Assembly (NCBI GenBank): GCA_016783605.1
Contig: JADHWG010000002.1
Location: 107-64,106, forward strand
DNA: 64,000 nt
Reading direction: 5' to 3'
Source: Candidatus Omnitrophota bacterium
GTDB taxonomy: Bacteria > Omnitrophota > Gorgyraeia > Tantalellales > Tantalellaceae
How positions within the stretch are numbered: the stretch's first letter is position 1; each line of letters starts with the position of its first letter. Positions 12,591 through 60,983 of this stretch are shown in pieces. A program made the position numbers and the translations under genes. Below the pieces are notes generated by a model that saw only the letters and a program-made list of their open reading frames with translations, ran no database searches and was not told the origin of the DNA.

Positions 12591-12753
12591 GTTGACCATC
12601 AACCTCGTAGGTGTGATAATTCATACCAATTAATTGTACATTTGTAGTTATGAAATGTATGTTTCTATGGGAATATGGGGGCACATGCAATGTGCCCGCG
12701 TATCCTTGACAAGGTTCATCATATATGATACACTTTATTCAGAGGTGAAAACT

Positions 12754-12984
12754 ATGCCTACAAAAAAACCACGAATAAATGTAGTGCTTGAACCAAGATT
12801 GTACAAAATCTTGGTAAGAGTGGCACATGGAGAAGGGATTTCTGTATCTTTGGCGGCAAGAGATTTGATAAAGGATGCTGTTGAACTTTACGAAGATAGG
12901 TACTGGGCAAAAGTCGCTGAGGAAAGAGAGAAAACTTTTTCTGACAAGAAGGCTTTAACCCATAAGGAAGTTTGGGATCAGTGA
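12754..12984 (+). CDS. Ribbon-helix-helix (CopG/RelB-like) antitoxin
   Basis: ATG at 12754 inside track ORF 12634-12984, giving 76 aa. MPTKKPRINVVLEPRLYKILVRVAHGEGISVSLAARDLIKDAV is a typical RHH antitoxin N-terminus. Its stop overlaps the start of the downstream RelE-like gene. Confidence 0.7.
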   Translation: MPTKKPRINVVLEPRLYKILVRVAHGEGISVSLAARDLIKDAVELYEDRYWAKVAEEREKTFSDKKALTHKEVWDQ

Positions 12985-13286
12985 AATACACTGTATTTTA
13001 TCACCAGGATGTAAAACAGAAAGATCTTTCGTCTATCCCGGAAAATTTAAAGCAAAGAATTCGTAGGGCTATAGAAGAAAAATTAATGTTGGATCCTGAA
13101 AACTACGGTACTCCTCTAAGGAAAGGTTTACATGGGTACCGAAAATTGCGAGTAGGAGATTATCGGGTTATTTACAGCATTCGGAAAAGTAGTGCTAAGA
13201 TTAAAATTTTCAAAATTGGACACAGAAAAGAAGTATATAAGAATGCGCATACACGTGTAAAAGAAGTGTCTTACCTAACAAAATGA
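12981..13286 (+). CDS. relE: RelE/ParE-family toxin
   Basis: Track ORF 12972-13286. GTG 12981 overlaps the antitoxin stop as gTGA; TTG 12972 is an alternative start. LRKGLHGYRKLRVGDYRVIYSIRKSSAKIKIFKIGHRKEVY matches the conserved RelE/ParE core (RVGDYRVIY...I..IGHRK). Confidence 0.75.
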   Translation: MKYTVFYHQDVKQKDLSSIPENLKQRIRRAIEEKLMLDPENYGTPLRKGLHGYRKLRVGDYRVIYSIRKSSAKIKIFKIGHRKEVYKNAHTRVKEVSYLTK

Positions 13287-21975: not shown

Positions 21976-22029
21976 ATGAGACTTGCCTTTTGGGTGGCGC
22001 AAAGCGCCCCCCAAAAGGCTTAGCCGAAT

Positions 22030-22400
22030 TCATCCCCGCGAAAGCGGGGATCCAGTACTGAGCAACCTCGCAGTGTAAGTTTAATTCCACCCACGAGGTT
22101 ATAACGATTGTGACCTGTTTTTGTTAGTTGGTTTTCGCTATTTTTATATTATAGATTCCCGCCTTCGCGAGAATGACAATATGATGCGCGGGAATGACAC
22201 TCCACCTCATTGTCATCCCCGCGCAAGCGGGGATCTAGAACCGAGCAACCTCGCAGTTTGATTTTACTCCACCCCACGAGGTTGAAATGATAGTGTTACG
22301 TTTTTGTTAGTTGGTTTTTGTTATTTTCATATTATAGATTCCCGCGTGCGCGGGAATGACAATAATGGTGTGCGGGAATTACAATTCACACCGTGGAAAT
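22030..22400. repeat. Two tandem copies of a 180-nt unit (22030-22209 and 22210-22390), each with a ccccgcg-aaa-gcgggg stem-loop and a cccgcNNNgcggg palindrome
   Basis: Seen in sequence. tcatccccgcgaaagcggggatccagtactgagcaacctcgcagtgtaagtttaattccacccacgaggtt...attcccgccttcgcgagaatgacaat is repeated with about 85% identity. Confidence 0.85.
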
Positions 22401-22489
22401 GGTGAATGATCTTTTAGTGTAGGGACGGATCCGCGTGTGGGTTTGTGAACGCTTGAGATATTAAAAATAGAGGAAGAGGAGGATACAAA

Positions 22490-23053
22490 ATGGATAAGAA
22501 AAAAATAGAAAAAGCCGTAAAGGATATATTGGAAGCGGTTGGAGATAATCCTGAAAGAGAAGGGCTTAAAAACACACCTAAGCGAGTTGCCCAAATGTAT
22601 GAAGAGATATTTGGGGGAATGGACAGGAATCCCGACGATGATCTTGAGGTGTTTTTTGAGAAAGAGCATGATGAAATAATTTTGCTCAAGGGAATCCCTT
22701 TATATTCCATTTGCGAACATCATATGGTTCCGTTTGTAGGTAAAGCGCATGTCGCGTATATTCCCGGCGATAACAAGATCACGGGTTTGAGTAAAATTGC
22801 CAGGGTTGTCGATACATTGTCCAGAAGACTTCAGGTGCAGGAACGGCTTACGACTGAAATAGCGGAAGTTCTTATGCGTAAGCTGACCCCTCGCGGAGTG
22901 CTTGTGGTGGTTGAAGCGGAGCATCTTTGTATGAGTATGAGGGGCGTGAAAAAACCCGGAATCATGACTATGACAAGTGCGGTAAGGGGCGTGTTCCGAA
23001 CAAGTCAAAAGACCCGTTCAGAGGCGTTGTCTCTTATCAGACACCGCGGATAG
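22490..23053 (+). CDS. folE: GTP cyclohydrolase I FolE
   Basis: 187 aa with a GAGGAAGAGGAGG RBS. It has the conserved [10 protein letters not shown] and [14 protein letters not shown] motifs. Confidence 0.95.
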
Positions 23054-23055
23054 TT

Positions 23056-23084
23056 CCCCAAAACAACCTAGGGTTGTTTTGGGG
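23056..23084 (+). terminator. Terminator-like hairpin ccccaaaacaaccctagggttgttttgggg after folE
   Basis: Seen in sequence: a 12-bp stem with a T-rich 3' side, 3 nt after the folE stop. Confidence 0.5.
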
Positions 23085-23232
23085 CGTATATCGTATGTCG
23101 CATATCGTATATCGAAGAACAGTATGTCGTATGTCGCATATGGTATGTCGTGAAGAACTTTTTCCGCCGAAGGCGGACCCGCCTCCGGCGGGGATTTTCT
23201 TGCGATATACGATATGCGACATACGACATACG
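23085..23232. repeat. Palindromic element family P3, copy 3 (tatgtcg-type arms, core ccgccgaaggcggacccgcctccggcgg)
   Basis: Seen in sequence. Its reverse complement recurs at 24808-24950. Track ORFs 22927-23247, 23037-23240 and 23068-23268 are artefacts. Confidence 0.85.
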
Positions 23233-23351
23233 AAAATCAACCTGTAAGGTTGATTTTTTGGGGTGCATATAATATAATTATACGCAATATCGGTGTCGGG
23301 TCGTAGCCGAAAAGAGTTGTTAAAAACCAGAGGATATTAAAAGGGATTAAT

Positions 23352-23813
23352 ATGGCTAAATATGGGGTTTTATGGCAATTGGTGCATAACAAGGTTGTCG
23401 TGGCTACTTTTATGGGGTGGTTTACGGCTCAGATAATCAAGGTTATTAGCGGAGTGGTAAGAGAGAGGCGGTTTAATTTTAAATGGTTTGTCGGAACCGG
23501 AGGCATGCCGAGTTCTCATGCCGCGGGTGTGGCGGCGCTAACGACAAGTGTTGGTATGTACGAAGGTGTGAGTACGGCGCTTTTCGGAGTGACGCTTCTT
23601 TTTTGTGTTATCGTGATATGTGACGCGCAGGGAGTCCGGCGCGCGTCCGGGAAACAGGCCGAGATCTTAAATACGATAATGGACGACATATATTGGAAAA
23701 AAAAGATACAGGAAGAAAAACTTAAGGAACTTTTAGGGCATACTCCTATCCAAGTGTGGGCGGGAATATTGATAGGGATCGGTGTTGCCGGTGGACTGTA
23801 TTTCATAAAATAG
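23352..23813 (+). CDS. DUF212 / divergent PAP2-like membrane protein (YuiD family)
   Basis: 153 aa. GGMPSSHAAGVAALTTSVG and CDAQGVRR are characteristic of the acid-phosphatase/vanadium-haloperoxidase-related DUF212 family. It has several TM helices. Confidence 0.7.
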   Translation: MAKYGVLWQLVHNKVVVATFMGWFTAQIIKVISGVVRERRFNFKWFVGTGGMPSSHAAGVAALTTSVGMYEGVSTALFGVTLLFCVIVICDAQGVRRASGKQAEILNTIMDDIYWKKKIQEEKLKELLGHTPIQVWAGILIGIGVAGGLYFIK

Positions 23814-23882
23814 GGCACGTAAGTCTCCCGATTTTTTTTGTTCAAGGGGAGAAGCCATCGAATACTGAAAAGGACAAATTTT

Positions 23883-24806
23883 GTGAAGAAAATAATTTGG
23901 GTAGGGATAGTTATTACGGTGTTTATTATTACCGGAGTGTCGTTTATCGTTATGAAGCGTGTTGATTCCGGAGGGGAGTGTTTTATCAGCCAGGACAAGG
24001 CCGCGCTCATATATCAGAGGGCGGAGGAGTTTATTGAAAACGAAGAATATATCGAGGCGGAAAACGCTTTGTTTACGATCGCTACCGAATATCCGGACTC
24101 TTTTTACGCGGGTAAATCTCTCAGGAAAGTTGCCGAATTTTATATTGAAAACAACGACTATAAATCCGCGCGGGACATATACAAACGTCTTCTTCTCGAT
24201 TTTCCCGGATTTCAAGCCGCGGCCGAGATCCGTTCCGACATCGAAAAGTTGAATATGAGAATTATGTTTTCGCCTACGATAGCGGAAAACAGTGTCGAAT
24301 ATGAAATTCAATCCGGAGACACTCTTTACAGTATCTCAAAAAAATTTAATACCACGGTTGAACTTTTAAAAAAGGCGAATGAGCTTCAAGGCAATTTAAT
24401 ACGTCCCGGTCAACATATCAAGATAATCTTATTGGAATTTTCAATTTTTGTGGATAAATCATCAAACACTCTCACCCTTAACGGTGACGAAGATATTATC
24501 AAGACATATAGCGTTTCAACCGGAAAAGATAACAGTACCCCTGTGGGTACGTTTGAAATTGAAGAAAAAATGGTAAAACCCCTTTGGTACAAAGTTGGCT
24601 CGGTCGTATCGGCCGATAGCGAAGAATATGAGCTCGGAACAAGATGGATGGGACTTTCTGTTGAGGGATATGGAATACATGGAACTTCGGATGAAAACAG
24701 TATTGGAAAACAGGTTACGCAAGGTTGTGTTCGAATGTACAACGATGATATTATTGAACTCTATACGGTTATCCCGAGCGGAACAAAAGTGGTTATAGTA
24801 GATTAA
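23883..24806 (+). CDS. LysM-domain L,D-transpeptidase (YkuD family)
   Basis: Track ORF 23838-24806. GTG 23883 with an AAAGGA RBS is preferred. It has an N-terminal TM anchor, a TPR-like segment and a LysM domain (YEIQSGDTLYSISKKFNTTVELLKKANEL). The YkuD catalytic motif is HGTSDENSIGKQVTQGCVRM. Confidence 0.8.
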   Translation: MKKIIWVGIVITVFIITGVSFIVMKRVDSGGECFISQDKAALIYQRAEEFIENEEYIEAENALFTIATEYPDSFYAGKSLRKVAEFYIENNDYKSARDIYKRLLLDFPGFQAAAEIRSDIEKLNMRIMFSPTIAENSVEYEIQSGDTLYSISKKFNTTVELLKKANELQGNLIRPGQHIKIILLEFSIFVDKSSNTLTLNGDEDIIKTYSVSTGKDNSTPVGTFEIEEKMVKPLWYKVGSVVSADSEEYELGTRWMGLSVEGYGIHGTSDENSIGKQVTQGCVRMYNDDIIELYTVIPSGTKVVIVD

Positions 24807-24807
24807 T

Positions 24808-24950
24808 CGCATGTCGTATGTCGCATATCGTATATCGCAAGAAAATCCCCGCCGGAGGCGGGTCCGCCTTCGGCGGAAAAAGTTCTTCACGACATACCAT
24901 ATACGACATACTGTTCTTCGATATACGATATGCGACATACGACATACGAT
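24808..24950. repeat. Palindromic element family P3, copy 4. It is the reverse complement of copy 3, so the pair flanks the DUF212/L,D-transpeptidase cassette as inverted repeats.
   Basis: Seen: cgcatgtcgtatgtcgcatatcgtatatcgcaagaaaatccccgccggaggcgggtccgccttcggcggaaaaagttcttcacgacataccatatacgacatactgttcttcgatatacgatatgcgacatacgacatacgat equals the reverse complement of 23085-23232 with a few mismatches. Confidence 0.85.
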
Positions 24951-24971
24951 AAAAAAGGTGAGACAAAAAAT

Positions 24972-25934
24972 ATGGCGATAATGCTTGAATTTGAAAAACC
25001 CATAGTGGAACTGGAAAACAAGATCGAAGAGCTTAAAAAGTTTACAAAAGATGAGCAGATCGATTTTTCCAAAGAGATAGAGCGTTTAACGGCGCGGCTT
25101 GAAACGCTTCGAAAGGAAATTTTCAGCAACCTTACGTCTTGGCAAAAAGTTCAGATCGCGCGTCATCCCGATCGTCCTTACACGATGGATTATATCAACA
25201 TGATCACGGAAGATTTTATTGAAATACACGGCGATCGGCATTTCGCCGATGACAGGGCGCTTGTGGGCGGTCTGGTCAAACTTGCCGGACAAAAAATGGT
25301 GGTTTTGGGACATCAAAAAGGCCGGGATATGGCTGAAAATATGGAAAAGAATTTTGGATGCGCTCATCCCGAAGGATATCGTAAAGCCATGCGTATTATG
25401 AGGATGGCGGAAAAATATAATTTGCCCATAATTACGTTCATTGACACTCCCGGGGCGTATCCCGGAATAGGAGCTGAAGAACGCGGGCAGGCGGAAGCGA
25501 TCGCTCATAACCTTAGAGAAATGTTTGCCCTTAAGGTGCCGATCATTGTGTTTGTGATAGGGGAAGGTGGGTCCGGCGGGGCTTTAGGCATAGGGATAGG
25601 CGATAGGATATTTGTTTTGGAAAACGCGTATTATTCGGTGATTTCGCCTGAAGGATGTGCCGCGATTCTTTGGAGAGAGAGAGCAAAAGCTCCTTCCGCG
25701 GCGGAAGCGTTAAAACTTACGGCGCCGGAACTTTTGAAACTAGGAATAATTGATGGAATAATTCCGGAACCTTTGGGCGCGGCGCACAGGGAGCCTCAAA
25801 AAACGGCTGAAGAAATAAAGCGCGCGGCGATAAAGAGTCTTAATGAACTTTTTGCTCTTTCTCCGGAAGAGCTTTTGTCAAAACGGTATGAAAAATATAG
25901 AAATATCGGTGTTTACAACGAAGGACACGTATAA
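24972..25934 (+). CDS. accA: Acetyl-CoA carboxylase carboxyltransferase subunit alpha AccA
   Basis: Track ORF 24930-25934. ATG 24972 with an AAGGTGAG RBS is preferred because the 5' part of the track ORF lies in a repeat. It has the [24 protein letters not shown]-terminus, and [10 protein letters not shown] and GEGGSGGAL motifs. Confidence 0.95.
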
Positions 25935-25935
25935 A

Positions 25936-26343
25936 ATGGTAAAAAACGTAATTCCGACCAATAGCCGTCTCTTGAAAAAAATAAGCAAAAAACTGATCAA
26001 GCTTTTAAAAAAAGCGGAAATTGATGAAGAAATTATTTTTGATATTCACGTGAGTTTGGAAGAGGCTCTTCGAAACGCGATGATGCACGGGAATAAATTG
26101 GATATCAGAAAAAAAATTATGGTCGAGGCGGAACTCGAGCCGAGCATTATGAAAATAGCCGTAGAAGACGAAGGAGGAGGGTTTAATCCGTCAAAACTTC
26201 CCGATCCGACGCATAGCGAAAATCTTCTTAAAGAAAACGGAAGAGGCATATATTTGATGAGGCATCTTATGGATGAAGTGAAGTTTGAAAATTCGGGCCG
26301 CAGAGTTACAATGACAAAGTATCTCGGCACAAAACAATTATAG
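25936..26343 (+). CDS. Anti-sigma regulatory factor-type Ser/Thr kinase (RsbW/SpoIIAB-like GHKL ATPase)
   Basis: ATG 25936 lies 1 nt after the accA stop. The track ORF 25843-26343 extends artefactually upstream. GHKL motifs are EEALRNAMMHGN (N box), EDEGGGF (G1) and ENGRGIYLMRHL (G2). Confidence 0.8.
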   Translation: MVKNVIPTNSRLLKKISKKLIKLLKKAEIDEEIIFDIHVSLEEALRNAMMHGNKLDIRKKIMVEAELEPSIMKIAVEDEGGGFNPSKLPDPTHSENLLKENGRGIYLMRHLMDEVKFENSGRRVTMTKYLGTKQL

Positions 26344-26355
26344 ATAAGGGGCGGT

Positions 26356-26691
26356 ATGGAAATTAGCGTGGAGGAAAAAAAAGGGATATCGATCTTTAGG
26401 ATGACCGGAGACATCGACATCAATACCGCTCCGGAGTTGAAAACTTCTTTTGATGAGATGGCAAAGCGCTCGGGAATAAAGGTGATACTGAATTTAAAAA
26501 AAGTTGATTACGTGGATAGTTCCGGACTTGCCACGATGGTTGAAATTTTGAAAAAACTGCGCGATAATAACGGAAGTCTTAAAGTGACAAATCTTTCCGC
26601 GAAAGTTAAAGGGCTTTTTGAAATTACAAAGTTAACACAGCTTTTTGATATATTTAATGAAGAAGATGAAGCAGTTAATTCGTTTGGATAA
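26356..26691 (+). CDS. STAS-domain protein (anti-sigma-factor antagonist / MlaB-like) with a phosphorylatable DSSG motif
   Basis: 111 aa. FRMTGDIDINTAPELKTSFDEM...VDYVDSSGLATMVEIL has the SpoIIAA/RsbV fold signature, including the conserved phospho-Ser context D-S-S-G. Confidence 0.85.
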   Translation: MEISVEEKKGISIFRMTGDIDINTAPELKTSFDEMAKRSGIKVILNLKKVDYVDSSGLATMVEILKKLRDNNGSLKVTNLSAKVKGLFEITKLTQLFDIFNEEDEAVNSFG

Positions 26692-26750
26692 GGCGACAAT
26701 TGTTAGACTTTTAAGGAAAAATAAAAGAAAAACAAAAAAAGTTGTGACAA

Positions 26751-27548
26751 ATGACAAATCCGATAGTTGCTATTGGAAAAACTACCATCAATTTTTTTCA
26801 AAATGCTTCCAGTGTATTGTCTCTTTTGGCAACCACGATCTGGTGGTCGGTGTTTGGGCTCTTTAATCGCAAAGCATCAGGCAGCCAGAGTATTTTAAAC
26901 CAAATGGTGTTTGCCGGGGTACAATCTCTCCTTATAGTGTTTTTTATTTCCTTGTTTACAGGTGTTGTGATTGCCATGCAAAGCGCGTATCAGCTTAGAA
27001 CGCTTGGCGCGGTCATATACGTCGCGCCTATGGTTAGCATAAGTATGGTGAGGGAACTCGGTCCGGTTTTTACGGCGCTTATCGTGACCGGAAGAGTCGG
27101 CTCGGCAATAACCGCGGAACTGGGAACGATGAAAGTTTCCGAACAGATCGAGGCCTTGGAAACTATGGCGCTTAGTCCTGTTCGGTTTCTTATTGTGCCG
27201 CGGTTTTTGGCGCTTCTTGTTATGCTTCCGTGTCTTACGGTGATCAGTGATTTTGTGGGGATGTTGGGCGGACTTATCGTTGGAGTGTTTAATCTCGGGC
27301 TTGATCCTTACAGGTATGTGACTTTTTCCTTCAATTTTTTAACATGGAAAGATGTGTGGACGGGACTGGTGAAAAGTGTGGCTTTCGCGACGATCATTTC
27401 CATTATCGCTTGTTACGTTGGGCTTAAAACGCAAGGCGGTGCCGAAGGCGTCGGAAAGGCCACAACTTTGAGTGTTGTTGTCAGTTTTATTTTGATAGTG
27501 GTCTTCGATTGTATTTTGACCGGGCTATTTTATTTTTCCAACATGTGA
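26751..27548 (+). CDS. mlaE: ABC transporter permease MlaE
   Basis: 265-aa multi-TM protein with an MlaE-like conserved region (RELGPVFTALIVTGRVGSAITAELGTMKVSEQIEALETMA). Confidence 0.85.
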   Translation: MTNPIVAIGKTTINFFQNASSVLSLLATTIWWSVFGLFNRKASGSQSILNQMVFAGVQSLLIVFFISLFTGVVIAMQSAYQLRTLGAVIYVAPMVSISMVRELGPVFTALIVTGRVGSAITAELGTMKVSEQIEALETMALSPVRFLIVPRFLALLVMLPCLTVISDFVGMLGGLIVGVFNLGLDPYRYVTFSFNFLTWKDVWTGLVKSVAFATIISIIACYVGLKTQGGAEGVGKATTLSVVVSFILIVVFDCILTGLFYFSNM

Positions 27549-27614
27549 GGGGTCGGGGAGTTTTTTTTCGACCCCTCATCCTGAGCCAAGCGAAGGATCT
27601 CTCTTGTAGGTTGG
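27547..27614. repeat. Palindromic element family P4, left-type half copy (gaggggtcgggg...gacccctc hairpin followed by atcctgagccaagcgaaggatctct)
   Basis: Seen in sequence. It begins inside the mlaE stop codon (atgTGAggggtc). Confidence 0.8.
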
Positions 27615-27647
27615 AAAGTTCTTTTTACAAACGCGAATGGAAAGAGT

Positions 27648-28445
27648 ATGCGGGAAAAAGAAGTCGTAATTAGAATCGAAAATCTTGTTAAACGATTTCA
27701 GGGGCGGCCTGTTCTGGACGGTGTGAATCTCGAGATCCATAGGGGAGAGACGTTCGTTGTTATCGGCTCGACCGGATGCGGCAAGAGCACGCTTTTACGG
27801 AACATGATAGGCAGTCTTAAACCCGATTCCGGTAAAGTTTTTCTGCTCGGAAACGATATTACGGATCTTCATGAAGATGAACTTGACGATGTTAGGATGA
27901 AGATCGGTATGTCTTTTCAGTCTTCGGCGTTATTTGACTCGATGACCGTCGCGGAAAACGTATCGCTTGGTTTAATTGAACATACGCGTCTTCAGAAAAG
28001 TGTTATCGACATCATCGTAAAAATGAAACTTGAACTTGTCGGACTTCGCGGATTTGAAGACCTTATGCCAAGTGAACTTTCCGGCGGGATGCGCAAGCGT
28101 GTCGGTTTGGCTCGGGCAATTGCCATGGATCCGGAGATAGTTTTTTATGATGAGCCGACTTCCGGGCTTGATCCTATAACTCAAGGCGTGATAGACAAAC
28201 TCATAATAGATCTTTCAAAAAAACTTTCGATCACAAGCGTAGTTGTCACTCATGACATGAAAAGCGCCATGGCGATCGCGGATAAGATTGCCATGCTTTA
28301 TGACGGAAAAATTCTTGAGGTTGGCACCGGTTGTCAGATACAAAAATCCAAGAGCGAAATTGTTCAACAGTTTATAACGGGCTGTCACGACGGACCGATA
28401 CACTTTTTTAAACAAAAAGAAGATTATTTGGATCATTTGGTTTAA
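27648..28445 (+). CDS. mlaF: ABC transporter ATP-binding protein MlaF
   Basis: 265 aa. It has Walker A GSTGCGKST, the signature LSGGMRKRVGLARA and Walker B IVFYDEPTSGLD. Confidence 0.9.
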   Translation: MREKEVVIRIENLVKRFQGRPVLDGVNLEIHRGETFVVIGSTGCGKSTLLRNMIGSLKPDSGKVFLLGNDITDLHEDELDDVRMKIGMSFQSSALFDSMTVAENVSLGLIEHTRLQKSVIDIIVKMKLELVGLRGFEDLMPSELSGGMRKRVGLARAIAMDPEIVFYDEPTSGLDPITQGVIDKLIIDLSKKLSITSVVVTHDMKSAMAIADKIAMLYDGKILEVGTGCQIQKSKSEIVQQFITGCHDGPIHFFKQKEDYLDHLV

Positions 28446-28446
28446 T

Positions 28447-28516
28447 GAGGGGTCGGGGTGTTTTTCGACCCCTCATCCTGAAGCCCAAAGGGCTGAAGGA
28501 TCTCTATAGATCCTTT
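28447..28516. repeat. Palindromic element family P4, right-type copy (gaggggtcggggtgtttttcgacccctcatcctgaagcccaaagggctgaaggatctct)
   Basis: Seen in sequence directly after the mlaF stop. It matches the right arm of the intragenic element at 44407-44545. Confidence 0.8.
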
Positions 28517-28571
28517 TTGAAAATTAATCTGTCCTCTACAATTGAAACCAAAGTCTCATCAAGGAGAAAAC

Positions 28572-29165
28572 ATGAAATTTTCTAAGGAGATAAAAGCCGG
28601 AATAGTTGTAGTTGTCGCGGTCGCGGGATGTGTGGTGTTTTATGCCAAAACCACGAATATTCGCACCAGGACGTATGAACTGAAAACTTCTTTTACATAC
28701 GCCGGCAATTTGAAAGATAATGCCATCGTAAAACTTTCCGGAATAAATGTCGGGAGATTGAAACAGACGAGTTTTGTGTATGACCCCAAGACGAAAGTGG
28801 AATGTATTCTTGAACTTGACGACAAAGCCAAAATACGGAAAGACTCGATTGCCTATATCGGTTCGTCCGGACTTGTCGGAGACGTGCATATCGGAATTAC
28901 GGGAGGCGAGTCCAAAGAGTTTCTGAAAAATCATGATGTTGTGGATAGTGAAGATCCCGTCGAAACGCGTCTTTTAATGAAAAAAGCCGATTCCATCGCG
29001 AGTAATCTTGACAAAATACTTTTGGAAGTGAAAAATATCATCACCGATAATGAGCAAGGAATAAACGACATAGTGAAGAATATTGAATCGACTACCGAAA
29101 ATTTTAAAGAATTCAGCGAAGACCTTAAAAAGCACCCATGGAAATTGTTGTTTAAAGGAGATTGA
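28572..29165 (+). CDS. mlaD: MCE-domain substrate-binding protein MlaD
   Basis: Track ORF 28542-29165. ATG 28572, 6 nt after AAGGAG, is preferred. It has an N-terminal TM anchor followed by an MCE domain (VKLSGINVGRLKQ..). Confidence 0.75.
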   Translation: MKFSKEIKAGIVVVVAVAGCVVFYAKTTNIRTRTYELKTSFTYAGNLKDNAIVKLSGINVGRLKQTSFVYDPKTKVECILELDDKAKIRKDSIAYIGSSGLVGDVHIGITGGESKEFLKNHDVVDSEDPVETRLLMKKADSIASNLDKILLEVKNIITDNEQGINDIVKNIESTTENFKEFSEDLKKHPWKLLFKGD

Positions 29166-29179
29166 CGGCGCGAGTAATT

Positions 29180-31093
29180 ATGAGAAAATTTAATAAAGAA
29201 AAAGCCGGTTACATAGCGGTGATCGTGTTTATCGCGATATTGCTTCTTTCGATCTCATACTTAAGAATATTCGATGATTTTGAATACAGCACACTTGACT
29301 TCAGGTTCAAATCCCGCGTTTCCCAAAGGGTAGATAAAGATATCGTGATCGTTCGTATTGACGATGACTCCATAAAAAAATTGGGAGGGTGGCCTTTCCT
29401 TAGGAATTATCACGCTCTTTTAGTGAAGGTTCTGGCGGCCAATGGAGCTAAAACGGTTGTTTTTGATGTGTTTTTCAGTGAAGATAAGCCCGGGGATAAC
29501 GAGTTCGCCAAAGCGATCAAAAACGCGGGAATAGTTTATTTGCCGTACATCTTCGATCTGGAGAAAAAAGTGACCGGAGTCAAAGGCATGCGTGTTGTTG
29601 GTTTTGTCGCTCCGCTTGTTGACATTTTAAAAAAGGTCGCCAAAGGAACCGGGTTCATAAATATAGAACCTGATGTTGACGGAAAAATTCGACGAATTAC
29701 TCCATTCATCTCATACGAAGATAACCTGTATCCCAATCTGACGGTGCTCGCGGCAATCAACGATTTGGGATATCGATTCGATGAAGCAACCATTATTCCC
29801 GGCAAAAGGATCATTCTGGATAAAGAAAAGTTCATCCCACTGGACGAGAACTCGTCGATTATGGTTAATTATCCCGCGAAATGGGGAAAAGGATTCAGGC
29901 ATTATTCCTATGTTGAAGTTTTGGAGTCTTATCTATCGGAAGTTACCGGGCGTACCGCGCAAATAGATTTAAGCGAGTTTAAGGGGAAGGTATGTTTTGT
30001 GGGGCTTGCGGCTTCGACCGCTCGCGATACTAATCCATCTCCGCTGGAAACTTTTTATCCGGGAGTCGGAGTTAATGCCAGTGTGTATAACAGTATTGTT
30101 CAGAGTAGGTTTATTCAGCGTTTGAATAAATGGTGGAATCTTCTGATACTCTTGGCAATGTGGTGTGCTGTAGCATATATCGCGGGAAAAGTTCGTAAGA
30201 GATTCGGTCTTATTTCCATTCTTCTGGTGATGGTGGTATACGCGGGGCTCGCAATGATCTTTTTCTGGCCGTTCGGGATTTGGATAGACGTTTTTTATCC
30301 TCTTGTAAGTCTGATCACAGTTTACGTGATCTTTATGTTTAGGAAATATGTTACGGAAATCAGAAAAAGAGAAACTATTGAAAAAGAACTTAATATTGCG
30401 AAAGACATTCAGCGAAGTTTTCTGCCCGTAGAAATTCCTTCACTTCCGGGGATGGATATAGCCGCGGAAATGCTAACGGCTCACCAGGTCGGCGGAGATC
30501 TTTACGATATGGTGCGTTTCGGAAAAGATAAGATCGGGGTAATGATCGGAGACGTGTCCGGGAAAGGTGTTCCGGCGGCGCTTTATATGGCGAGGGTTGT
30601 AAGCATATTTAAAACTTTCGCACGTGAAGTTTCTCCCGGAGAAGTGCTAAAAAATATTAATGATCATCTTGTCGATGAATCCGGCAATAATCTTTTTGTG
30701 ACACTAACCTATATGATATTTGACGCGAAGAAAAAGACCGTGAAATACGCTATAGGCGGGCATCCGCCCGCTATTATGATGGATCCCGCCGGCGAGATAA
30801 AGCTTCTTCAAACCGACGAAGGTATGCCTTTGGGGCTTGTTCAGGGAAATTTCACCGAGAACGAAACTTCTTACAAGCCGGGAAGCGTTTTTGTTTTATA
30901 TACCGATGGTGTGACCGAAGCTATGGATGTTAAGGAAGAGATGTTTGGACAGGAAAAACTCAAAGAACTTGTAAAAGCTCATAAGGGATGTTCTTCCAAG
31001 GAAATAATTTCACTATTGCAAAAAGCTATCTCTGATTATGCCGGAGGAGCTTTTCAGCACGATGATATTACGATCGTCACAATTCGCGTGTAA
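29180..31093 (+). CDS. CHASE2 extracytoplasmic sensor fused to a PP2C/SpoIIE-type Ser/Thr phosphatase (RsbU-like)
   Basis: Track ORF 29162-31093; ATG 29180 is preferred. It has an N-terminal TM helix, a CHASE2-like periplasmic region of about 300 aa, 3 TM helices, then PP2C motifs (GGDLYDM, IGDVSGKGVPAALYMA, YTDGVTEA, HDDITIV). Confidence 0.85.
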   Translation: MRKFNKEKAGYIAVIVFIAILLLSISYLRIFDDFEYSTLDFRFKSRVSQRVDKDIVIVRIDDDSIKKLGGWPFLRNYHALLVKVLAANGAKTVVFDVFFSEDKPGDNEFAKAIKNAGIVYLPYIFDLEKKVTGVKGMRVVGFVAPLVDILKKVAKGTGFINIEPDVDGKIRRITPFISYEDNLYPNLTVLAAINDLGYRFDEATIIPGKRIILDKEKFIPLDENSSIMVNYPAKWGKGFRHYSYVEVLESYLSEVTGRTAQIDLSEFKGKVCFVGLAASTARDTNPSPLETFYPGVGVNASVYNSIVQSRFIQRLNKWWNLLILLAMWCAVAYIAGKVRKRFGLISILLVMVVYAGLAMIFFWPFGIWIDVFYPLVSLITVYVIFMFRKYVTEIRKRETIEKELNIAKDIQRSFLPVEIPSLPGMDIAAEMLTAHQVGGDLYDMVRFGKDKIGVMIGDVSGKGVPAALYMARVVSIFKTFAREVSPGEVLKNINDHLVDESGNNLFVTLTYMIFDAKKKTVKYAIGGHPPAIMMDPAGEIKLLQTDEGMPLGLVQGNFTENETSYKPGSVFVLYTDGVTEAMDVKEEMFGQEKLKELVKAHKGCSSKEIISLLQKAISDYAGGAFQHDDITIVTIRV

Positions 31094-31123
31094 AAAAATG
31101 ACACTTAACAACGAAAGAACAAC

Positions 31124-32752
31124 ATGGATTTAAAATTAAAAAAATTAAAAAATTTTACACCAAGAAAAGGTCCTCTCCTGCTTATCATAATGGATGGAGT
31201 GGGGTTGGGCCGCCCGGATGAATCGAACGCGGTGTTTTTGGCGAATACGCCTTGTTTGGATAAATTGTTTAAAAGCCCTCTTTTTACAAAACTCACCGCG
31301 CATGGAACCAGTGTCGGGCTCCCGTCCGATGAGGATATGGGAAACAGTGAAGTAGGGCATAACGCGCTTGGAGCCGGAAGAGTTTTCGCTCAAGGAGCGA
31401 AAAGAGTGGAAGACGCTATTGAAGACGGAAGCGTATTTAAGCGAAAAGAATGGAAAAAACTCGCCGAAGGAGTGAAAAAAAACGGCGGTGCGTTTCATTT
31501 TATCGGTCTTTTATCCGACGGGAACGTTCATTCACATATTGATCAACTGCTCGCGATGATAGATCAACTTGCCAAAGAAAACGTTCAGCGCGCGCGTGTT
31601 CACGCGCTTCTTGACGGGCGTGACGTCGGTGAAAAATCCGCTTTAAGTTACATCGAAAAAACGGAAAAAGTGTTAGCTCGAATTCGCCAAGAAAAGGGAT
31701 ATGATTATAGAATTGCTTCCGGCGGCGGCAGAATGGTTACGACGATGGACAGATATAATGCCGATTGGAGTGTTGTGAAAAACGGGTGGGACACGCATGT
31801 TTTGGGACTTGGTCGGCAGTTTTCTTCCGCGAAAGAGGCGGTAGAAACTTATTATAAAGAAGATCCGAACATTACCGATCAATATTTACCGTCTTTTGTG
31901 ATAGCGGAAAATTCAAAACCTGTCGGATGTATAAAAGACGGTGATTCGGTTGTGTGTTTTAATTTTAGAGGCGACCGCGCGATAGAAATTTCGCGAGCGT
32001 TCGAAGAAAAAGATTTTAAAGAGTTCGATCGCGTAAGATTCCCGAACGTTTTGTATGCCGGAATGATGGAATATGACGGCGACTTGCATATCCCGAAACA
32101 TTTTCTTGTGAACCCGCCGAAGATCGACAGAACCGTAAGTGAATATTTATGCGCGGCAGGAGTGAAAATGTTCGCGATTTCCGAAACTCAAAAGTTCGGA
32201 CATGTAACATACTTTTGGAACGGGAATAAATCAGGATATATCTCGCGCGACTTGGAAGAATATGTTGAGATCCCGTCCGACAAAGTGCGGTTTGATAAAA
32301 CCCCGGCGATGAAGGCTCCGGAGATCACAAAAAAAACCATTGAACTTTTAAAAAGCGGTAAATTTGTTTTCGGCAGACTTAATTTCCCAAACGGTGACAT
32401 GGTAGGGCATACCGCCGAGCCGAAAGCCATAATAAGCGCGATGGAAGCGGTTGATTCCTCTGTTCAGAAACTTTTGGAAGTTATTAAAGAACTTGGAGGG
32501 ATCGCGTTAATTACCGCCGATCACGGCAATTCCGAAGAAATGTTCACAATTACCGGCGGCAAAAAATTCCCGAAAACGTCACACACTCTAAACCCCGTCC
32601 CATTCGTTATCTACGACCCCGCTTACGCCGGAGAATATAAAATGAGAAACCTCTCCAAACAAGGCCTCTCAAACGTAGCCGGCACCATCCTGAACCTCTT
32701 AGGCTACGAAAACGTAAAAGACTACGACCCGTCACTGATAGAGTTCAAATAA
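31124..32752 (+). CDS. gpmI: 2,3-bisphosphoglycerate-independent phosphoglycerate mutase
   Basis: 542 aa. LIIMDGVGLG and DGRD motifs mark the metalloenzyme iPGM/AlkP-core family. Confidence 0.9.
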   Translation: MDLKLKKLKNFTPRKGPLLLIIMDGVGLGRPDESNAVFLANTPCLDKLFKSPLFTKLTAHGTSVGLPSDEDMGNSEVGHNALGAGRVFAQGAKRVEDAIEDGSVFKRKEWKKLAEGVKKNGGAFHFIGLLSDGNVHSHIDQLLAMIDQLAKENVQRARVHALLDGRDVGEKSALSYIEKTEKVLARIRQEKGYDYRIASGGGRMVTTMDRYNADWSVVKNGWDTHVLGLGRQFSSAKEAVETYYKEDPNITDQYLPSFVIAENSKPVGCIKDGDSVVCFNFRGDRAIEISRAFEEKDFKEFDRVRFPNVLYAGMMEYDGDLHIPKHFLVNPPKIDRTVSEYLCAAGVKMFAISETQKFGHVTYFWNGNKSGYISRDLEEYVEIPSDKVRFDKTPAMKAPEITKKTIELLKSGKFVFGRLNFPNGDMVGHTAEPKAIISAMEAVDSSVQKLLEVIKELGGIALITADHGNSEEMFTITGGKKFPKTSHTLNPVPFVIYDPAYAGEYKMRNLSKQGLSNVAGTILNLLGYENVKDYDPSLIEFK

Positions 32753-32778
32753 AGACAGCAGCAACGACTCCCTATCTG

Positions 32779-32875
32779 TTTTGAATAAAACTTGACACGT
32801 GGTATCAAATGCGGTACCATATGTTAGAAATCAAAACTTGCATAAAGGTTCCATATATGGTACCTTTGTAGGGGG
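32779..32875 (+). promoter_or_regulatory. hicAB promoter (TTGACA-17-TACCAT) whose -10 overlaps the left arm of a palindrome ggtaccatat...atatggtacc (32813-32822 and 32855-32864), a putative HicB operator
   Basis: Seen in sequence. The right arm ends 17 nt before the hicA start. Confidence 0.45.
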
Positions 32876-32881
32876 AGAGAG

Positions 32882-33145
32882 ATGTCCAGAGTAGAGAAAT
32901 TATACAACAAAGCTAAAGAGTCTCCCAATAATTTGTCTTTTTCGGACTTGTGTCTATTGTTGGAAAAAGTAGGGTTTGAGTTTAAAAGGCAGAAGGGTTC
33001 CCATAGGACTTTTAAGCACCCTCAGATTAAAAACATAGACAGTATACAAGAAATACAAAATGTTAAGGGAAAAGCGAAAGCATATCAGGTCAGGCAAGTT
33101 CTTGACAAAATAGATAGACACAATCTATATCGGGGGAGGGAATAA
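32882..33145 (+). CDS. hicA: HicA-family mRNA interferase toxin
   Basis: 87 aa. LSFSDLCLLLEKVGFEFKRQKGSHRTFKHP matches the HicA/YcfA dsRBD-like toxin signature, including the catalytic GSH. Confidence 0.8.
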   Translation: MSRVEKLYNKAKESPNNLSFSDLCLLLEKVGFEFKRQKGSHRTFKHPQIKNIDSIQEIQNVKGKAKAYQVRQVLDKIDRHNLYRGRE

Positions 33146-33147
33146 AA

Positions 33148-33645
33148 ATGGTTAAATATTCCGTAAGTATAACTTGGAGCGAAGAGGATGAGGGATTTAT
33201 TGCGATAGTTCCTGAGCTTAACGGCTTATCTGCTTTTGGTAAAACGTACAAAGAAGCTTCTGAAGAAATTGAAGTTGCTATTGAGAATTTTTTAAAAACA
33301 CTGAAGGATGAAAAAATTCCTATTCCAAAGCCTAAAAAACTTGAAGAATATAGCGGTCAAACAAGACTTAGGATGCCGAAAAAATTACATAGAATTTTGA
33401 CTAGTGACGCGTCAAATGAAGGAGTGTCTCTAAACGCGTATATGGTTTTTCTTCTGACGATGCATGCAAATGTTCATCGCCAGATAAAAGATTCATTGTG
33501 GCTTGACAAAATATTCCCCGATTTTACTAGCGAAAGCAGTGAGTCATTTCAAGAAGAATTTGGTGATTCTCAGGCAACGCCAGTTAGCGATGATCAAGAA
33601 AATTATGTTGATATGATGAAACCAAAGGAGAAAGTGACATGGTAA
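33148..33645 (+). CDS. hicB: HicB-family antitoxin (RNase H-like fold plus C-terminal RHH/HTH region)
   Basis: 165 aa starting 3 nt after hicA. YSVSITWSEEDEGFIAIVPELNGLSAFGKTYKEASEEIEVAIENFL is a typical HicB N-domain. Confidence 0.8.
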   Translation: MVKYSVSITWSEEDEGFIAIVPELNGLSAFGKTYKEASEEIEVAIENFLKTLKDEKIPIPKPKKLEEYSGQTRLRMPKKLHRILTSDASNEGVSLNAYMVFLLTMHANVHRQIKDSLWLDKIFPDFTSESSESFQEEFGDSQATPVSDDQENYVDMMKPKEKVTW

Positions 33646-34166: not shown

Positions 34167-34242
34167 TGGTGGAGCTGAGGGGGCTCGAACCCCTGACCTC
34201 ATGCATGCCATGCACGCGCTCTCCCAGCTGAGCTACAGCCCC
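34167..34242 (-). tRNA. tRNA-Ala (anticodon GGC) with encoded CCA
   Basis: The reverse complement folds as ggggctg-ta-gctcagctgggagagc-g-cgtgc-atGGCat-gcatg-aggtc-aggggttcgagcccct-cagctcc-a-cca. It has the G3:U70 alanine identity pair, U33 and A37. Confidence 0.9.
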
Positions 34243-34310
34243 ACATAATAATGTATTCCGTTCCACCCAAAAACACCAACCTCGTAGGTTGGTGTTTTTG
34301 GGTGGATTTC

Positions 34311-34339
34311 AATATAGCATCGAGTTTGAGCACTGTCAA
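34311..34339 (-). promoter_or_regulatory. Consensus sigma70 promoter (TTGACA-17-TATATT) for tRNA-Ala, divergent from the tRNA-Leu promoter
   Basis: The reverse complement reads ttgaca gtgctcaaactcgatgc tatatt. A 40-nt P1-type hairpin (ccacccaaaaacaccaacctacgaggttggtgtttttgggtgg) lies between the -10 and the mature tRNA 5' end. Confidence 0.55.
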
Positions 34340-34350
34340 CAGTTTTTGGC

Positions 34351-34379
34351 TTGACTAATTGGGCGAGTAATATTAGAAT
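34351..34379 (+). promoter_or_regulatory. Sigma70 promoter (TTGACT-17-TAGAAT) 17 nt upstream of tRNA-Leu
   Basis: Seen: ttgact aattgggcgagtaatat tagaat. Confidence 0.6.
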
Positions 34380-34396
34380 TACTTTCGTTTAAATAA

Positions 34397-34485
34397 GCCG
34401 GAGTGGCGAAACTGGCAGACGCGCTGGATTCAAAATCCAGTGGGACTTAACTCCCGTGTGGGTCCGACTCCCACCTCCGGCACCA
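34397..34485 (+). tRNA. tRNA-Leu (anticodon CAA), type II with long variable arm and encoded CCA
   Basis: Acceptor gccggag pairs with ctccggc. The anticodon stem ctgga/tccag has loop ttCAAaa. The long variable arm is tgggacttaactcccgtg and the T stem is gtggg/cccac. Confidence 0.85.
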
Positions 34486-43635: not shown

Positions 43636-46600
43636 ATGGGGAAAGAAAAAAGTTTATACATATTTACTGATGTTCGGCTCAAGAAAAGGCGAATCATTCG
43701 GGTTATTGCTTTTTTGGTAGCCTCGCTTTATCTGTTTCAGCAGATCGCGTGGGCACAAGGGGGAGCGCCTCGAGCGTCTTCGATCTCAAGACCTGTTTCC
43801 GGAACGGAAGGTGTTTCCCGCGGGGAATTGCCGAAAGTTCCTTATAAATTCGGAAAGACGCATGAATTTTCGGTGAATACGAACGAGACCGGTGAAATTA
43901 TATATCACATTCAGGATTCCCACGCTTCGCTCGGCGCGCAGTATTCGATCGTTGAGCTTCTTGATTCTCTCGCGACTGATTATAACGTGAATCTTATTGC
44001 TCTTGAAGGCGCCGAAGGATATATCGATACTTCCGTTCTCCAATCGTTTCCCGATAAAGAAATTAGGCGAGACGCGGCAGACCGCCTCATGAAAAAGGGA
44101 CTTATGGGCGCGGCTGAATTTTTTACCGTAACGCGGGATGAAAAAGAGATCGATCTTTATGGAATAGAAGACGAAGAGTTATACAGGAAAAACGTTAACG
44201 AATTCCGCGAAGTTGTTGAAGAGCGTTCCGTAAAAATCGCGAATATCGACGCGTTTCTCACGCAACTAAAACTTCTGGAAAAAGAAATTTGTTCGGAACG
44301 CCTTTTGCGTTTAAACCGCTATTCTTTTCTGCATAGAAATTGCGAATTAAGTTTTTCAAATTACCGGAAGGAGCTTTTGGAGTTTACGGATCGCTTTAAA
44401 ATAGATGAGGGGTCGGGGAATTTTTCTCCGAACCCTCATCCTGAGCAAGGCGAAGGATCTCTGGTTAATTTTTCAAAAGGGTCTATAGAGATCCTTCAGC
44501 CCTTTGGACTTCAGGATGAGGAGTCGGGAAACTCCCCGACCCCTCAAATAGATACCGGTAAATATTCGGAACTCGCAAAACTTACTGAAGCGATCAGCCT
44601 TGAAAAAAGTATAGATTTTCAAAAGGCCAATACCGAGCGGCGCGCGCTTATTGACAAACTAAGCGAGCTTTTAGATAAAGCGGCGCTTAAAGAACTTGTT
44701 ATTAAGTCCGTTGATTTTCAGCAAAACATGATATCCCCGTCGGAGTTTCATGAATATCTTGTGGGGATGTCTAAAAGCCGCAAAATCCCGCCGGAAACCT
44801 ATCCCAATCTCAATATGTTCGCGCGTTATATTTCCGTTTATGAAAAGGTTAATCTGTTTTATCTCACAAAAGAATGCGAATTTTTGGAAAAGGAGATCCG
44901 AGAGAAGCTTTATCGGAACGAAGACGAAAGAAAGCTTGTTGAAATTACGCAAATGACGCGTATGCTCCGGCGTTTATATAGCATGGAACTTACCCCCGGC
45001 GATCACAGTTTTATAAAAACGGAACGCGCGAGGCGATCCGCGGAAGAGTTTACTTTGTTTATAAAAGAGGCGTGCAAAAAATACGGCGTTATCTTTGAAG
45101 AAGGATACGATATCCCGGAAATGTTTGCCGGCATAGAACCGGCTATGACGTTTTATGAAACGGCAGAGAAGAGAAACCAGCATATACTCAAGAATACCGT
45201 TACGCGGATGAAGAAAAGCGGCGCGCGCGCCGCCGCGCTTGTCACGGGCGGATATCATACGGAAGGCCTTACAAAAATAATGAAAGAGAAAAAACTTTCA
45301 TACCTTGTCATCGCCCCCAAATTTGAAAGCGGCGAAGAACGTCCGTATATCGCGGTCTTGACCGGCAAGAAGAAACCTTACCAGAAACTTCTAAAAACCG
45401 GAAAATATCAGCTTGCGATGGAACCCTTCTTTTATCGATCGAATATGGAAGAGATGAAAGAAGACCTTTTTTACGCGCTTGGTCGAGTGGTGCTGAAAGG
45501 CGAGGATCTAAAAAAAGTTAAAGACGCGCTATACAACAATCACAAAATAGAATATGAAAAAAGAATTTCTCAAAAAGAAAAAGAAACAAAGTTTGACGTG
45601 ATCACGCCAACTGAACTCAAAGCCTTTTTGGACAATATACACGTTATAAGAAGCGGCACGAGCGCTGTTATCGGAGACAAAACGGATAAAAATTCAATTA
45701 TTGTACTCGCGCGAAAAAATAGTGTTTACAATTTCAAAACGGCGACGCCCTCGCAAAAGAGAAAGTTACTGAACCGCATCTCCGAAGGCAAAATGCCGGA
45801 AGAAATGGAGGGAATAGGAACTAATATAACCGATTTTGTTCATGACCGAAGCCAAATTCTAACAAAACTCGATAAGTCCACTCCCGCGATTGTTCAGAAG
45901 ATACTGGCAAACCTTACCGAAGGAAAAATAGACGAAAATGAGATTAAGGAACAAGCAGTAATCCTTTTAAAACGTAAAGGAATGCCTTCCGATTGGCAAA
46001 GCGATATCGGTCTCAAAAAGAGGGTAAACAGGGTGATAGCTTTGGTGCGCCAGGGTTTTGCCGCAAAAAAGACTGAAAAAGAAAAGAAAAAGTTCGGCGA
46101 GTGGAAAAAAGCTATAGATGTTGAAAAATATTGGGAAAATTTAAAAAACGTTCTTGGTGAAGTACCGGAAGAGGTGTTGGTTAACGGGATCGATTTTGAA
46201 TTCGCGAATTTTGTTGATCATATGTGGAGCTTTATCCAACAAATAATTGACAGTGAAAAATTTAAACGCGAAATAATTCAATGCTATAACCAAAAAAATG
46301 CTGACGCTGACAAAAACTACCAAGATATAATACAAAGACTGAAATCTCTCCGTTCGCAAATATTTTCTAATCAAACTTTTAATATATTGGGTGATGATGT
46401 TTCTCCAGAAATCCGCAAACACTGGAATTACATATTAAGCGAATATGTCGGGTGCCGGTGGTTTTCGGATATTACCGAAAAGCATGCCGAAATTTTCGAG
46501 GATACTCTCCACGAAAAAATTACATCTCAAAACAAATCGGAAATTGAGAAATATACGAAGCATTTTAGAAAAAACTTGCCCTTCAAAAGTAAAAAGAAGG

Positions 46601-60506: not shown

Positions 60507-60557
60507 GTGGAATGACACTTGGTGGAATCTGCGGGTTCCAAGAAGATTCTAAGGTTT

Positions 60558-60983
60558 TTACTGCTTCTTAAGGTATTTTACAACATATTTTTGGAAATCG
60601 CGGAAATCCTTAAGGTTATTAAGATGTTCGTAAATGAGCTGAGGATCAACTTTAAGATATTCGTGGGCAAGGATGTTACGCAAACCTGCCATAGGTTCAA
60701 TCTTTTTGGCGAAATTTTTTGGAATTATTTTATTGGAGGAAATAATTTGTAGTGCATCTTTATTATCCCTGGGTCTGGACCAGTCGTTATCCACAATTAT
60801 ATGGTGACAAATATCCAGAATGCATTGAATGGCAACCTCAAGACATCGTTCGGCAAGTTTGAATATTTTGGGGTCAGAGCAAAATTTCTTCTGAGAAACA
60901 GCTTTTAATTCATCAAGAAGGAGAATGTTTTCACGCATTTCGCTTAATCTTTCATTAACGGTTTCCGGATTTACCATAATCAA
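60558..60983 (-). CDS. hepT: HepT (DUF86) RNase toxin
   Basis: 141 aa. It has the R-x4-HxY motif as RNILAHEY and overlaps the upstream MNT gene by 4 nt. Confidence 0.8.
   Translation of the reverse strand: MIMVNPETVNERLSEMRENILLLDELKAVSQKKFCSDPKIFKLAERCLEVAIQCILDICHHIIVDNDWSRPRDNKDALQIISSNKIIPKNFAKKIEPMAGLRNILAHEYLKVDPQLIYEHLNNLKDFRDFQKYVVKYLKKQ

Follow-up and report, generated by a model that had tools for sequence, protein, structure and literature searches.

Why would the genes of a serine-phosphorylation switch stand among those of a lipid transporter? The question is raised by a 64-kb stretch of DNA from a Candidatus Omnitrophota metagenome-assembled genome (MAG), here called the window, in which seven plus-strand genes run from accA through a membrane-bound sensor phosphatase between 24.9 and 31.1 kb. 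Behind accA follow, in this order, an RsbW/SpoIIAB-like serine kinase of 135 amino acids (aa) (25936 to 26343), a single-domain STAS protein of 111 aa (26356 to 26691), the permease MlaE (26751 to 27548), an MlaF-type ATP-binding cassette (ABC) ATPase (27648 to 28445), a short MlaD (28572 to 29165), and a membrane phosphatase of 637 aa that joins a CHASE2 sensor to a SpoIIE/PP2C domain (29180 to 31093). We consider it highly probable that the six genes from kinase to phosphatase form one functional unit, an MlaFED lipid transporter with a built-in serine-phosphorylation switch. To the full chain of a switch that takes the STAS protein as its output and acts on MlaFED, set out below, we would give an even chance. 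The six-gene order in a single direction, as read in the initial annotation, is confirmed, with every gene found on the plus strand at the position assigned to it. The gaps from accA to the phosphatase measure 1, 12, 59, 99, 126, and 14 nucleotides (nt); the description of the intergenic gaps between the six genes as 100 nt or less is nearly right, holding for four of the five and failing for mlaF-mlaD, where the 126 nt shrink to 96 nt if mlaD starts at the TTG at 28542. Promoter and terminator scans of positions 22000 to 33500 returned counts close to the shuffled expectation and gave no usable operon boundaries, and an Rfam scan found two tRNAs only, with no regulatory RNA within the operon.

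Could this arrangement be peculiar to one genome? When one genome per GTDB species was scanned, 537 proved to encode a related STAS protein, and the best 80 of these 537, retrieved through a STAS pattern containing DSSG, were analyzed as loci (related loci from other genomes carry L numbers below). The order kinase-STAS-mlaE-mlaF-mlaD is kept in 80 of the 80 species-level genomes, the wider order DUF212-ykuD-accA-kinase-STAS-mlaE-mlaF-mlaD is essentially invariant among them, and independent routes to such loci, by way of the phosphatase or the kinase, lead to the same order. Such recurrence, in 80 genomes and in loci found by other routes, indicates that the arrangement is not a product of chance. 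Median gaps among the related loci are 15 nt for kinase-STAS, 22 nt for STAS-mlaE, 21 nt for mlaE-mlaF, and 32.5 nt for mlaF-mlaD. The STAS gene, the sole one of the operon, lies immediately upstream of mlaE in every locus, indicating that it is encoded with the transporter, like E. coli mlaB. Database proteins identical or nearly identical to those of the window carry the label of Candidatus Omnitrophica/Omnitrophota MAGs. Relatives from one MAG pipeline that are labeled "uncultured Planctomycetia" display the same synteny, with STAS identity of up to 82%.

The phosphatase gene lies downstream of mlaD in 56 of the 61 loci with enough downstream sequence, directly after it in about 25 (the window among them) and behind an insert of 0.6 to 3.9 kb in about 31, and phosphatase orthologues with identity as low as 44% sit in the same arrangement. 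The gene that follows the phosphatase varies among relatives (gpmI, GAF-HD, feoB, or a giant gene). The synteny spans the whole neighborhood across the phylum, and conservation alone is therefore weak evidence. Three lineages have different upstream flanks (L091, L066, and L099), two of them differ on both sides (L091 and L099), and accA, DUF212, and ykuD are missing beside the module in all three. In L091 (SAG AM-311-J20), kinase-STAS-mlaEFD-CHASE2/PP2C stands between dnaG-rpoD upstream and ferredoxin-type (Fer4) genes downstream. Both flanks are unrelated in L099, where kinase-STAS-mlaE-mlaF-mlaD-FecR-barrel-CHASE2/PP2C make up eight abutting or overlapping genes. The module of L066 is preceded by metabolic genes, and its contig stops inside mlaE, leaving only kinase-STAS-mlaE visible. 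Since the flanks change in these lineages and the downstream gene varies, the switch and transporter genes are held together as a unit. Gene order, the loss of which would have counted against the initial proposal, is kept across the phylum and also where the genomic context changes.

These exceptional loci bear on the alternative that the switch acts on another envelope or lipid process, for example on acetyl-CoA carboxylase via AccA, or that it has no tie to Mla at all and the linkage is inherited synteny. The accA gene, for the carboxyltransferase alpha subunit of this enzyme (24972 to 25934, plus strand; PF03255, E 4e-150; start placed as in the L001 gene call), stands immediately ahead of the kinase gene in 78 loci (median gap, 5 nt), and the block of DUF212, ykuD, and accA is itself syntenic phylum-wide. 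In the 44-genome analysis described below, the residual rate covariation of AccA is unexpectedly high as well, at 0.51 for the kinase and 0.40 for the phosphatase. Against this alternative, L091, L066, and L099 do without accA, DUF212, and ykuD, L091 and L099 still have mlaEFD and the phosphatase, the gaps within the module are operon-like, and its genes overlap in L099; we consider it quite improbable. The accA gene is probably cotranscribed with the kinase gene and is better seen as context than as an obligate part of the module.

Does the module contain all that a phosphorylation switch needs? The kinase consists of a HATPase_c_2 domain only (PF13581, E 1e-25), and its closest PDB match is RsbW (6m36_A, E 1e-11). 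As expected for the GHKL serine kinase of a partner switch, its ATP-binding boxes are intact (N-box, E42 E43 N47 H51 G52 N53; G1, D78/G80/G82; G2, G102-R-G104); among 84 orthologues, 74 likewise have all of the N, G1, and G2 boxes intact, and the others come close to this. The phosphatase combines a CHASE2 domain (PF05226, E 1e-49, residues 19 to 332) with a PP2C domain (PF07228, E 1e-48, residues 450 to 637) that keeps the metal-binding motifs GGDxYD, GDVSGKG, TDG, and DD, as in the PP2C phosphatases of partner switches. Hydrophobic segments are found at residues 12 to 30, 318 to 336, and 344 to 362, and a fourth at about 366 to 388 was read from the sequence. With one such segment before CHASE2 and three after it, the predicted topology is a first transmembrane segment, a periplasmic CHASE2 domain, three hydrophobic segments, and a cytoplasmic PP2C domain, the same as reported for CHASE2 histidine kinases (PMC5192318). 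Judged by their motifs, both enzymes look active.

The STAS protein (PF01740, E 1e-22; TIGR00377, 90 bits against a cutoff of 53) likewise has the features of a partner-switch substrate, namely, a single STAS domain, a phosphorylatable Ser after a conserved Asp, and a SpoIIAA-like predicted fold. Phosphorylation is predicted at Ser55 of D54-S55-S56-G57, at the N terminus of helix alpha2, and the SpoIIAA-type D-S-S-G motif noted in the initial annotation corresponds to these residues 54 to 57. DSSG is invariant in the orthologues, including those from loci to which the phosphatase or the kinase gave access; its invariance in the 80 loci is circular, because the search pattern contained it. The suggestion that kinase and phosphatase are partners of this STAS protein fits what can be read from their sequences: the module is complete, and the catalytic residues are kept in the orthologues.

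The three genes between STAS and phosphatase encode together the permease, the MlaF-type ATPase, and the anchored MCE protein of an Mla/MCE ABC transporter core (MlaFED). MlaE (PF02405, E 5e-80; TIGR00056, 245 bits against a cutoff of 212) has five hydrophobic segments, and MlaD (197 aa) consists of an N-terminal membrane anchor, with one transmembrane segment at residues 7 to 25, and one MCE domain (PF02470, E 7e-13; TIGR04430, 74 bits, under the cutoff). For the ATPase, the top NCBIfam match is MlaF (PRK11831, 242 bits; equivalog cutoff, 441), and the top PDB matches are the MlaB-dependent MlaF proteins of A. baumannii, P. aeruginosa, and E. coli, aligned over the full length to within 2 residues of the C terminus. 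Its C-terminal "handshake" extension is kept: opposite Y260 and L264 in the alignment stand E. coli Y261 and L265, residues inserted in the MlaF/MlaB groove, and D248-G-P, F253, and D259 are invariant. Neither MlaC (PF05494) nor MlaA (PF04333) has a match among the scanned open reading frames (ORFs) of the window, and neither is listed for Omnitrophus magneticus in the sampled part of a published survey (PMC10665443).

What could connect the switch to the transporter? A precedent is offered by E. coli MlaB, whose Thr52 lies in the middle of the MlaF-MlaB interface and whose T52E substitution weakens MlaF binding (Kolich et al. 2020, PMC7367683); from the MlaFB structure, the same work put forward as an open possibility that MlaB is phosphoregulated at Thr52. 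In both proteins a Ser or Thr follows the conserved Asp at the start of alpha2, and hhalign pairs Ser55 with Thr52 in an alignment of 80% probability that covers only 47 columns, around the phosphosite. An exploratory mirror-tree analysis of rate covariation in 44 genomes, in which the mean distance of the remaining five proteins was controlled for in partial r, gave the STAS protein its strongest value with MlaF (0.36, a level reached in 0 of 1,000 permutations), ahead of AccA (0.17), the kinase (0.14), PP2C (0.09), and MlaE (-0.04); the known partners MlaE-MlaD reached 0.56, and kinase-PP2C reached 0.48. From its operon position, the E. coli MlaB precedent, and this rate-covariation signal, we infer that the STAS protein may bind MlaF directly.

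The covariation values also speak to a different wiring, in which the kinase itself would be the effector, binding and inhibiting MlaF or MlaE as an "anti-ATPase" until unphosphorylated STAS removes it. The genetic linkage is the same under both wirings, the STAS protein is of the classical antagonist type, and it is the kinase that bears the output in the classical scheme. However, partial r of the kinase is 0.06 with MlaF and 0.01 with MlaE, against the 0.36 of STAS-MlaF, no precedent is known for a GHKL kinase binding an ABC ATPase, and the MlaB precedent makes STAS the ligand of MlaF. An effector role of the kinase has little probability in our view.

Several observations weigh against a STAS output on MlaF. 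First, by sequence and predicted structure the STAS protein is of the RsbV/SpoIIAA type and falls outside the MlaB family. Its top PDB sequence matches are RsbV, SpoIIAA, and TM1442, with no MlaB among the matches at E < 0.01, and the MlaB model NF033618 gives it 30 bits against a cutoff of 90. The AlphaFold2 model (pLDDT 92.7) follows the order beta1-beta2-alpha1-beta3-alpha2-beta4-alpha3-beta5-alpha4, with alpha2 starting at residue 55, and includes beta5 (98 to 100) and alpha4 (103 to 109), both of which are absent from MlaB, a minimal STAS protein (PMC7367683); because MlaB lacks these elements and both are predicted here, the protein does not belong to the MlaB family. Foldseek TM scores are 0.84 to 0.91 for anti-sigma antagonists (RsbV and SpoIIAA) versus 0.56 to 0.66 for MlaB chains, which rank 29th or lower, and databases name the protein "STAS domain-containing protein" or "anti-sigma(-B) factor antagonist," never MlaB. 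It could nevertheless work as MlaB does. Second, most Mla systems beyond Proteobacteria function without a STAS subunit, and a shorter C-terminal MlaF extension is present in MlaB-less Veillonella as well, as described in the sampled part of PMC10665443. MlaF therefore need not have a STAS partner, and its extension is weak evidence for STAS binding. Third, mirror-tree tests have inflated false-positive rates, and the STAS-MlaF covariation is accordingly taken as a hint. At the residue level, mutual information between STAS and MlaF (average product correction, with the kinase as positive and AccA as negative control) was uninformative: the clade-marking column STAS G86 dominates the top pairs, equally so in the AccA negative control. 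Fourth, five loci (L036, L046, L052, L055, and L064) have no phosphatase within 5.5 kb downstream of mlaD and retain the kinase with intact motifs, a STAS protein with DSSG, and mlaEFD. In the first four of these, leuS takes the place of the phosphatase, which has been either moved or lost in the five loci. Finally, the best matches of kinase and STAS, by sequence and by fold, are RsbW/RsbV and SpoIIAB/SpoIIAA, and this favors a reading in which the module controls transcription.

According to that reading, the kinase would sequester an alternative or primary sigma factor encoded elsewhere, as in a canonical or Chlamydia-like switch, and unphosphorylated STAS would release it; the mla genes would merely be cotranscribed in an envelope-stress response. 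For the Rsb network of Chlamydia, the primary sigma factor has reportedly been suggested as the target, and in L091, from the most divergent lineage sampled, the module lies directly behind dnaG-rpoD, with its kinase gene 114 nt behind the primary sigma gene (L091 positions 1749 to 5071). Canonical rsbV-rsbW and spoIIAA-AB pairs normally have a sigma gene right after them. Where, then, is the sigma factor of the Omnitrophota pair? The ORFs of the window include no sigma-70-family gene. When the window and 91 related loci (1.08 Mb in total) were searched as six-frame ORFs by jackhmmer, starting from FliA, RpoS, and RpoE of E. coli, no alternative sigma factor came up, and the only match was the primary sigma factor of the dnaG-rpoD operon in L091. 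The sigB-like sigma factor that the initial annotation had envisaged as a rival target is thus not encoded nearby in the DNA searched. About 85 genomes show no alternative sigma gene closer than about 8 kb to the module. The rpoD of L091, in 1 of about 85 loci the sole sigma gene near the module or encoded beside the kinase-STAS pair, belongs to a housekeeping operon. Moreover, the module moves with mlaEFD and not with any regulator, and the kinase falls far below the RsbW/SpoIIAB equivalog cutoffs (NF003144, 58 versus 145 bits; TIGR01924, 49 versus 155; TIGR01925, 46 versus 135). We regard a sigma factor target as unlikely, though it deserves to be kept in mind. The earlier idea of a phosphorylation-controlled Mla transporter stands in part: the module is complete and conserved, with no linked alternative sigma gene, but its STAS protein is of the RsbV/SpoIIAA type and no MlaB.

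In most relatives, the sensor phosphatase has company. The insert between mlaD and the phosphatase gene encodes one or two secreted FecR-domain proteins and usually a protein resembling an outer-membrane barrel (BBP2_2/SlipAM-like, ending in ...YYAF); it occupies 5224 to 7984 in L006, 6166 to 7999 in L008, and 7184 to 9037 in L099 and is present in about 30 other loci. FecR-like and barrel genes were also sought elsewhere in the 64-kb window, and none was found. These proteins may be cosensors of CHASE2, or they may be the periplasmic and outer-membrane parts of a lipid route.

How would a STAS output on MlaFED work? Unphosphorylated STAS would use its helical face to dock on MlaF at the helical subdomain, in the manner of E. 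coli MlaB, and would stabilize or activate the MlaF dimer on MlaE, promoting the assembly or activity of MlaFED. The RsbW-like kinase would compete for the same face of STAS and phosphorylate Ser55, which would free STAS from MlaF and turn transport down. The CHASE2/PP2C protein would sense a periplasmic or outer-membrane cue, probably helped in most relatives by the FecR-like periplasmic proteins and the outer-membrane barrel, and would dephosphorylate phosphorylated STAS, turning transport on again. That STAS is phosphorylated, that MlaF is its partner, which way the regulation runs, and what kind of signal is sensed are things that we infer.

Is such a linkage found outside Omnitrophota? 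None of the five nearest non-Omnitrophota kinase relatives (two of them labeled Thermoanaerobaculales and Calditrichota) adjoins mla genes, a small sample. A kinase relative on a JGI contig (P0148) has no STAS or mla gene beside it, but that contig ends about 1.5 kb downstream. One of the five nearest relatives, in an unrelated bacterium (L098, 7001 to 13147 of a 352-kb scaffold), belongs to a kinase-STAS pair that lies directly upstream of a resistance-nodulation-division efflux pump (MFP and ACR_tran), another case of a switch pair beside an envelope transporter. Within Omnitrophota, the sampled rows of Supplementary Dataset 1 of Grasekamp et al. 2023 (PMC10665443) list the STAS orthologue of Omnitrophus magneticus (KJJ84113.1) as "MlaB in cluster" and likewise that of WOR_2 SM23_29, and the sampled rows for Chlamydiae, Elusimicrobia, Nitrospirae, Planctomycetes, Verrucomicrobia, and many candidate phyla show no STAS in their Mla clusters. 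Because the Mla clusters of these other phyla lack STAS in those rows, the kinase/STAS-Mla linkage looks like a phylum-specific, lineage-specific recruitment. That an RsbV-type STAS protein, its kinase, and a trans-envelope sensor phosphatase were recruited in Omnitrophota as a phosphorylation-gated "MlaB," with a sensor chain from barrel through FecR and CHASE2 to PP2C, is a possibility to which we give slightly less than an even chance.

Comparison with known systems shows what is familiar in the locus and what is not. It resembles the E. coli MlaFEDB system (Thong 2016; PMC7367683) in having MlaE, an MlaF with the handshake extension, a short MlaD with a single MCE domain, and one small STAS protein in the operon. 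It differs from E. coli in that its STAS protein is a full-length RsbV/SpoIIAA type scoring far under the MlaB model, in the presence of a kinase and a PP2C phosphatase in the operon, in the absence of mlaC and mlaA from the window, and in the gene order, STAS-E-F-D here versus mlaFEDCB with mlaB last. With RsbU-RsbV-RsbW and SpoIIE-SpoIIAA-SpoIIAB of Bacillus it shares a GHKL kinase, a STAS substrate with DS(S/T)G, and a PP2C phosphatase with an N-terminal sensor region. Unlike those switches, it has no linked sigma gene, its transporter genes are interleaved, the sensor is a periplasmic CHASE2 domain, and the kinase is a minimal 135 aa.

Partner-switch-like modules with non-sigma outputs include SypE/SypA of Vibrio fischeri and HsbR/HsbA of Pseudomonas. 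A further one, HenR/All4160/Alr3423 of Anabaena, acts directly on an envelope glycosyltransferase; in that system a kinase and a PP2C phosphatase determine whether a STAS domain is phosphorylated, and its state governs a nontranscriptional effector in cell-envelope biogenesis (PMC13555669). The Omnitrophota module would be alike in this respect; its presumed effector, by contrast, is an ABC lipid transporter, and the evidence for it is genomic. The CHASE2 histidine-kinase operon of Burkholderia (PMC5192318) has the same arrangement of a transmembrane segment, CHASE2, three transmembrane segments, and a cytoplasmic output, and a secreted FecR-domain protein stands beside the sensor as in most Omnitrophota relatives; the output here is PP2C instead of a histidine kinase, and the window has no FecR or barrel genes.

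Is the regulation of Mla by phosphorylation new? To our knowledge, no kinase or phosphatase acting on MlaB has been described. Our literature search for a link between partner switches and Mla, or for MlaB phosphorylation, returned nothing beyond the 2020 hypothesis, and a kinase or phosphatase is mentioned in neither PMC7367683 nor PMC10665443 in the parts sampled. The claim that this regulatory link had not been described for Mla needs to be narrowed accordingly, since phosphoregulation of MlaB had already been proposed (PMC7367683). We found no publication that describes kinase and phosphatase genes alongside those of an Mla transporter; the component families and partner switches with non-sigma outputs are already known.

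The rest of the window holds several other features. An intergenic palindromic element, about 150 nt long, is present in two inverted copies (23085 to 23233 and 24803 to 24953; 105 nt are 98% complementary) that flank DUF212-ykuD, the second just upstream of accA. The element consists of GTATGTCGCATATCGTATATCG-like repeats around the GC-rich hairpin CCCGCCTCCGGCGGG, and no further copy is present in the window (8 motif matches, all at those two sites; 0 expected). A 152-nt direct repeat (84% identical; 22030 to 22181 and 22213 to 22364) lies between mnmE and folE. Two giant ORFs, at 1746 to 12503 (3,585 aa) and 43636 to 59250 (5,204 aa), contain almost no Pfam domains, with one PKD domain in the former and one ARMT1-like domain in the latter, and both have the N-terminal motif QQIAWAQGGA behind a hydrophobic segment. 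Toxin-antitoxin-like pairs are located at 166 to 474, 12634 to 13286, 32882 to 33645, and 59472 to 61387; the set includes an MNT-like nucleotidyltransferase, ParE with an upstream small ORF, HicA/HicB, Fic-HTH, and HepT with a nucleotidyltransferase. The genes for tRNA-Ala(ggc) and tRNA-Leu(caa) lie at 34167 to 34485. Nearly all genes of the window are on the plus strand and GC skew is positive in 31 of 32 2-kb bins, indicating that the whole window lies on one replichore arm, where the strand bias is strong.

What would the switch mean for these bacteria? Posttranslational regulation of Mla, and of ABC transporters generally, is an open question. The operon supplies candidates for all three players as well as a sensor, all kept in hundreds of species, and since the players are named, the hypothesis of MlaB phosphoregulation becomes directly testable with small soluble proteins. 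If the proposal is true, an envelope signal would switch the assembly or ATPase activity of an outer-membrane lipid transporter posttranslationally, a natural case of the phosphoregulation only hypothesized for E. coli MlaB. A lipid transporter would then join the short list of non-sigma outputs of partner switches, and a CHASE2 sensor would gain a first functional context. The finding has a bearing on the envelope homeostasis of Omnitrophota, hardly any of which have been cultured.

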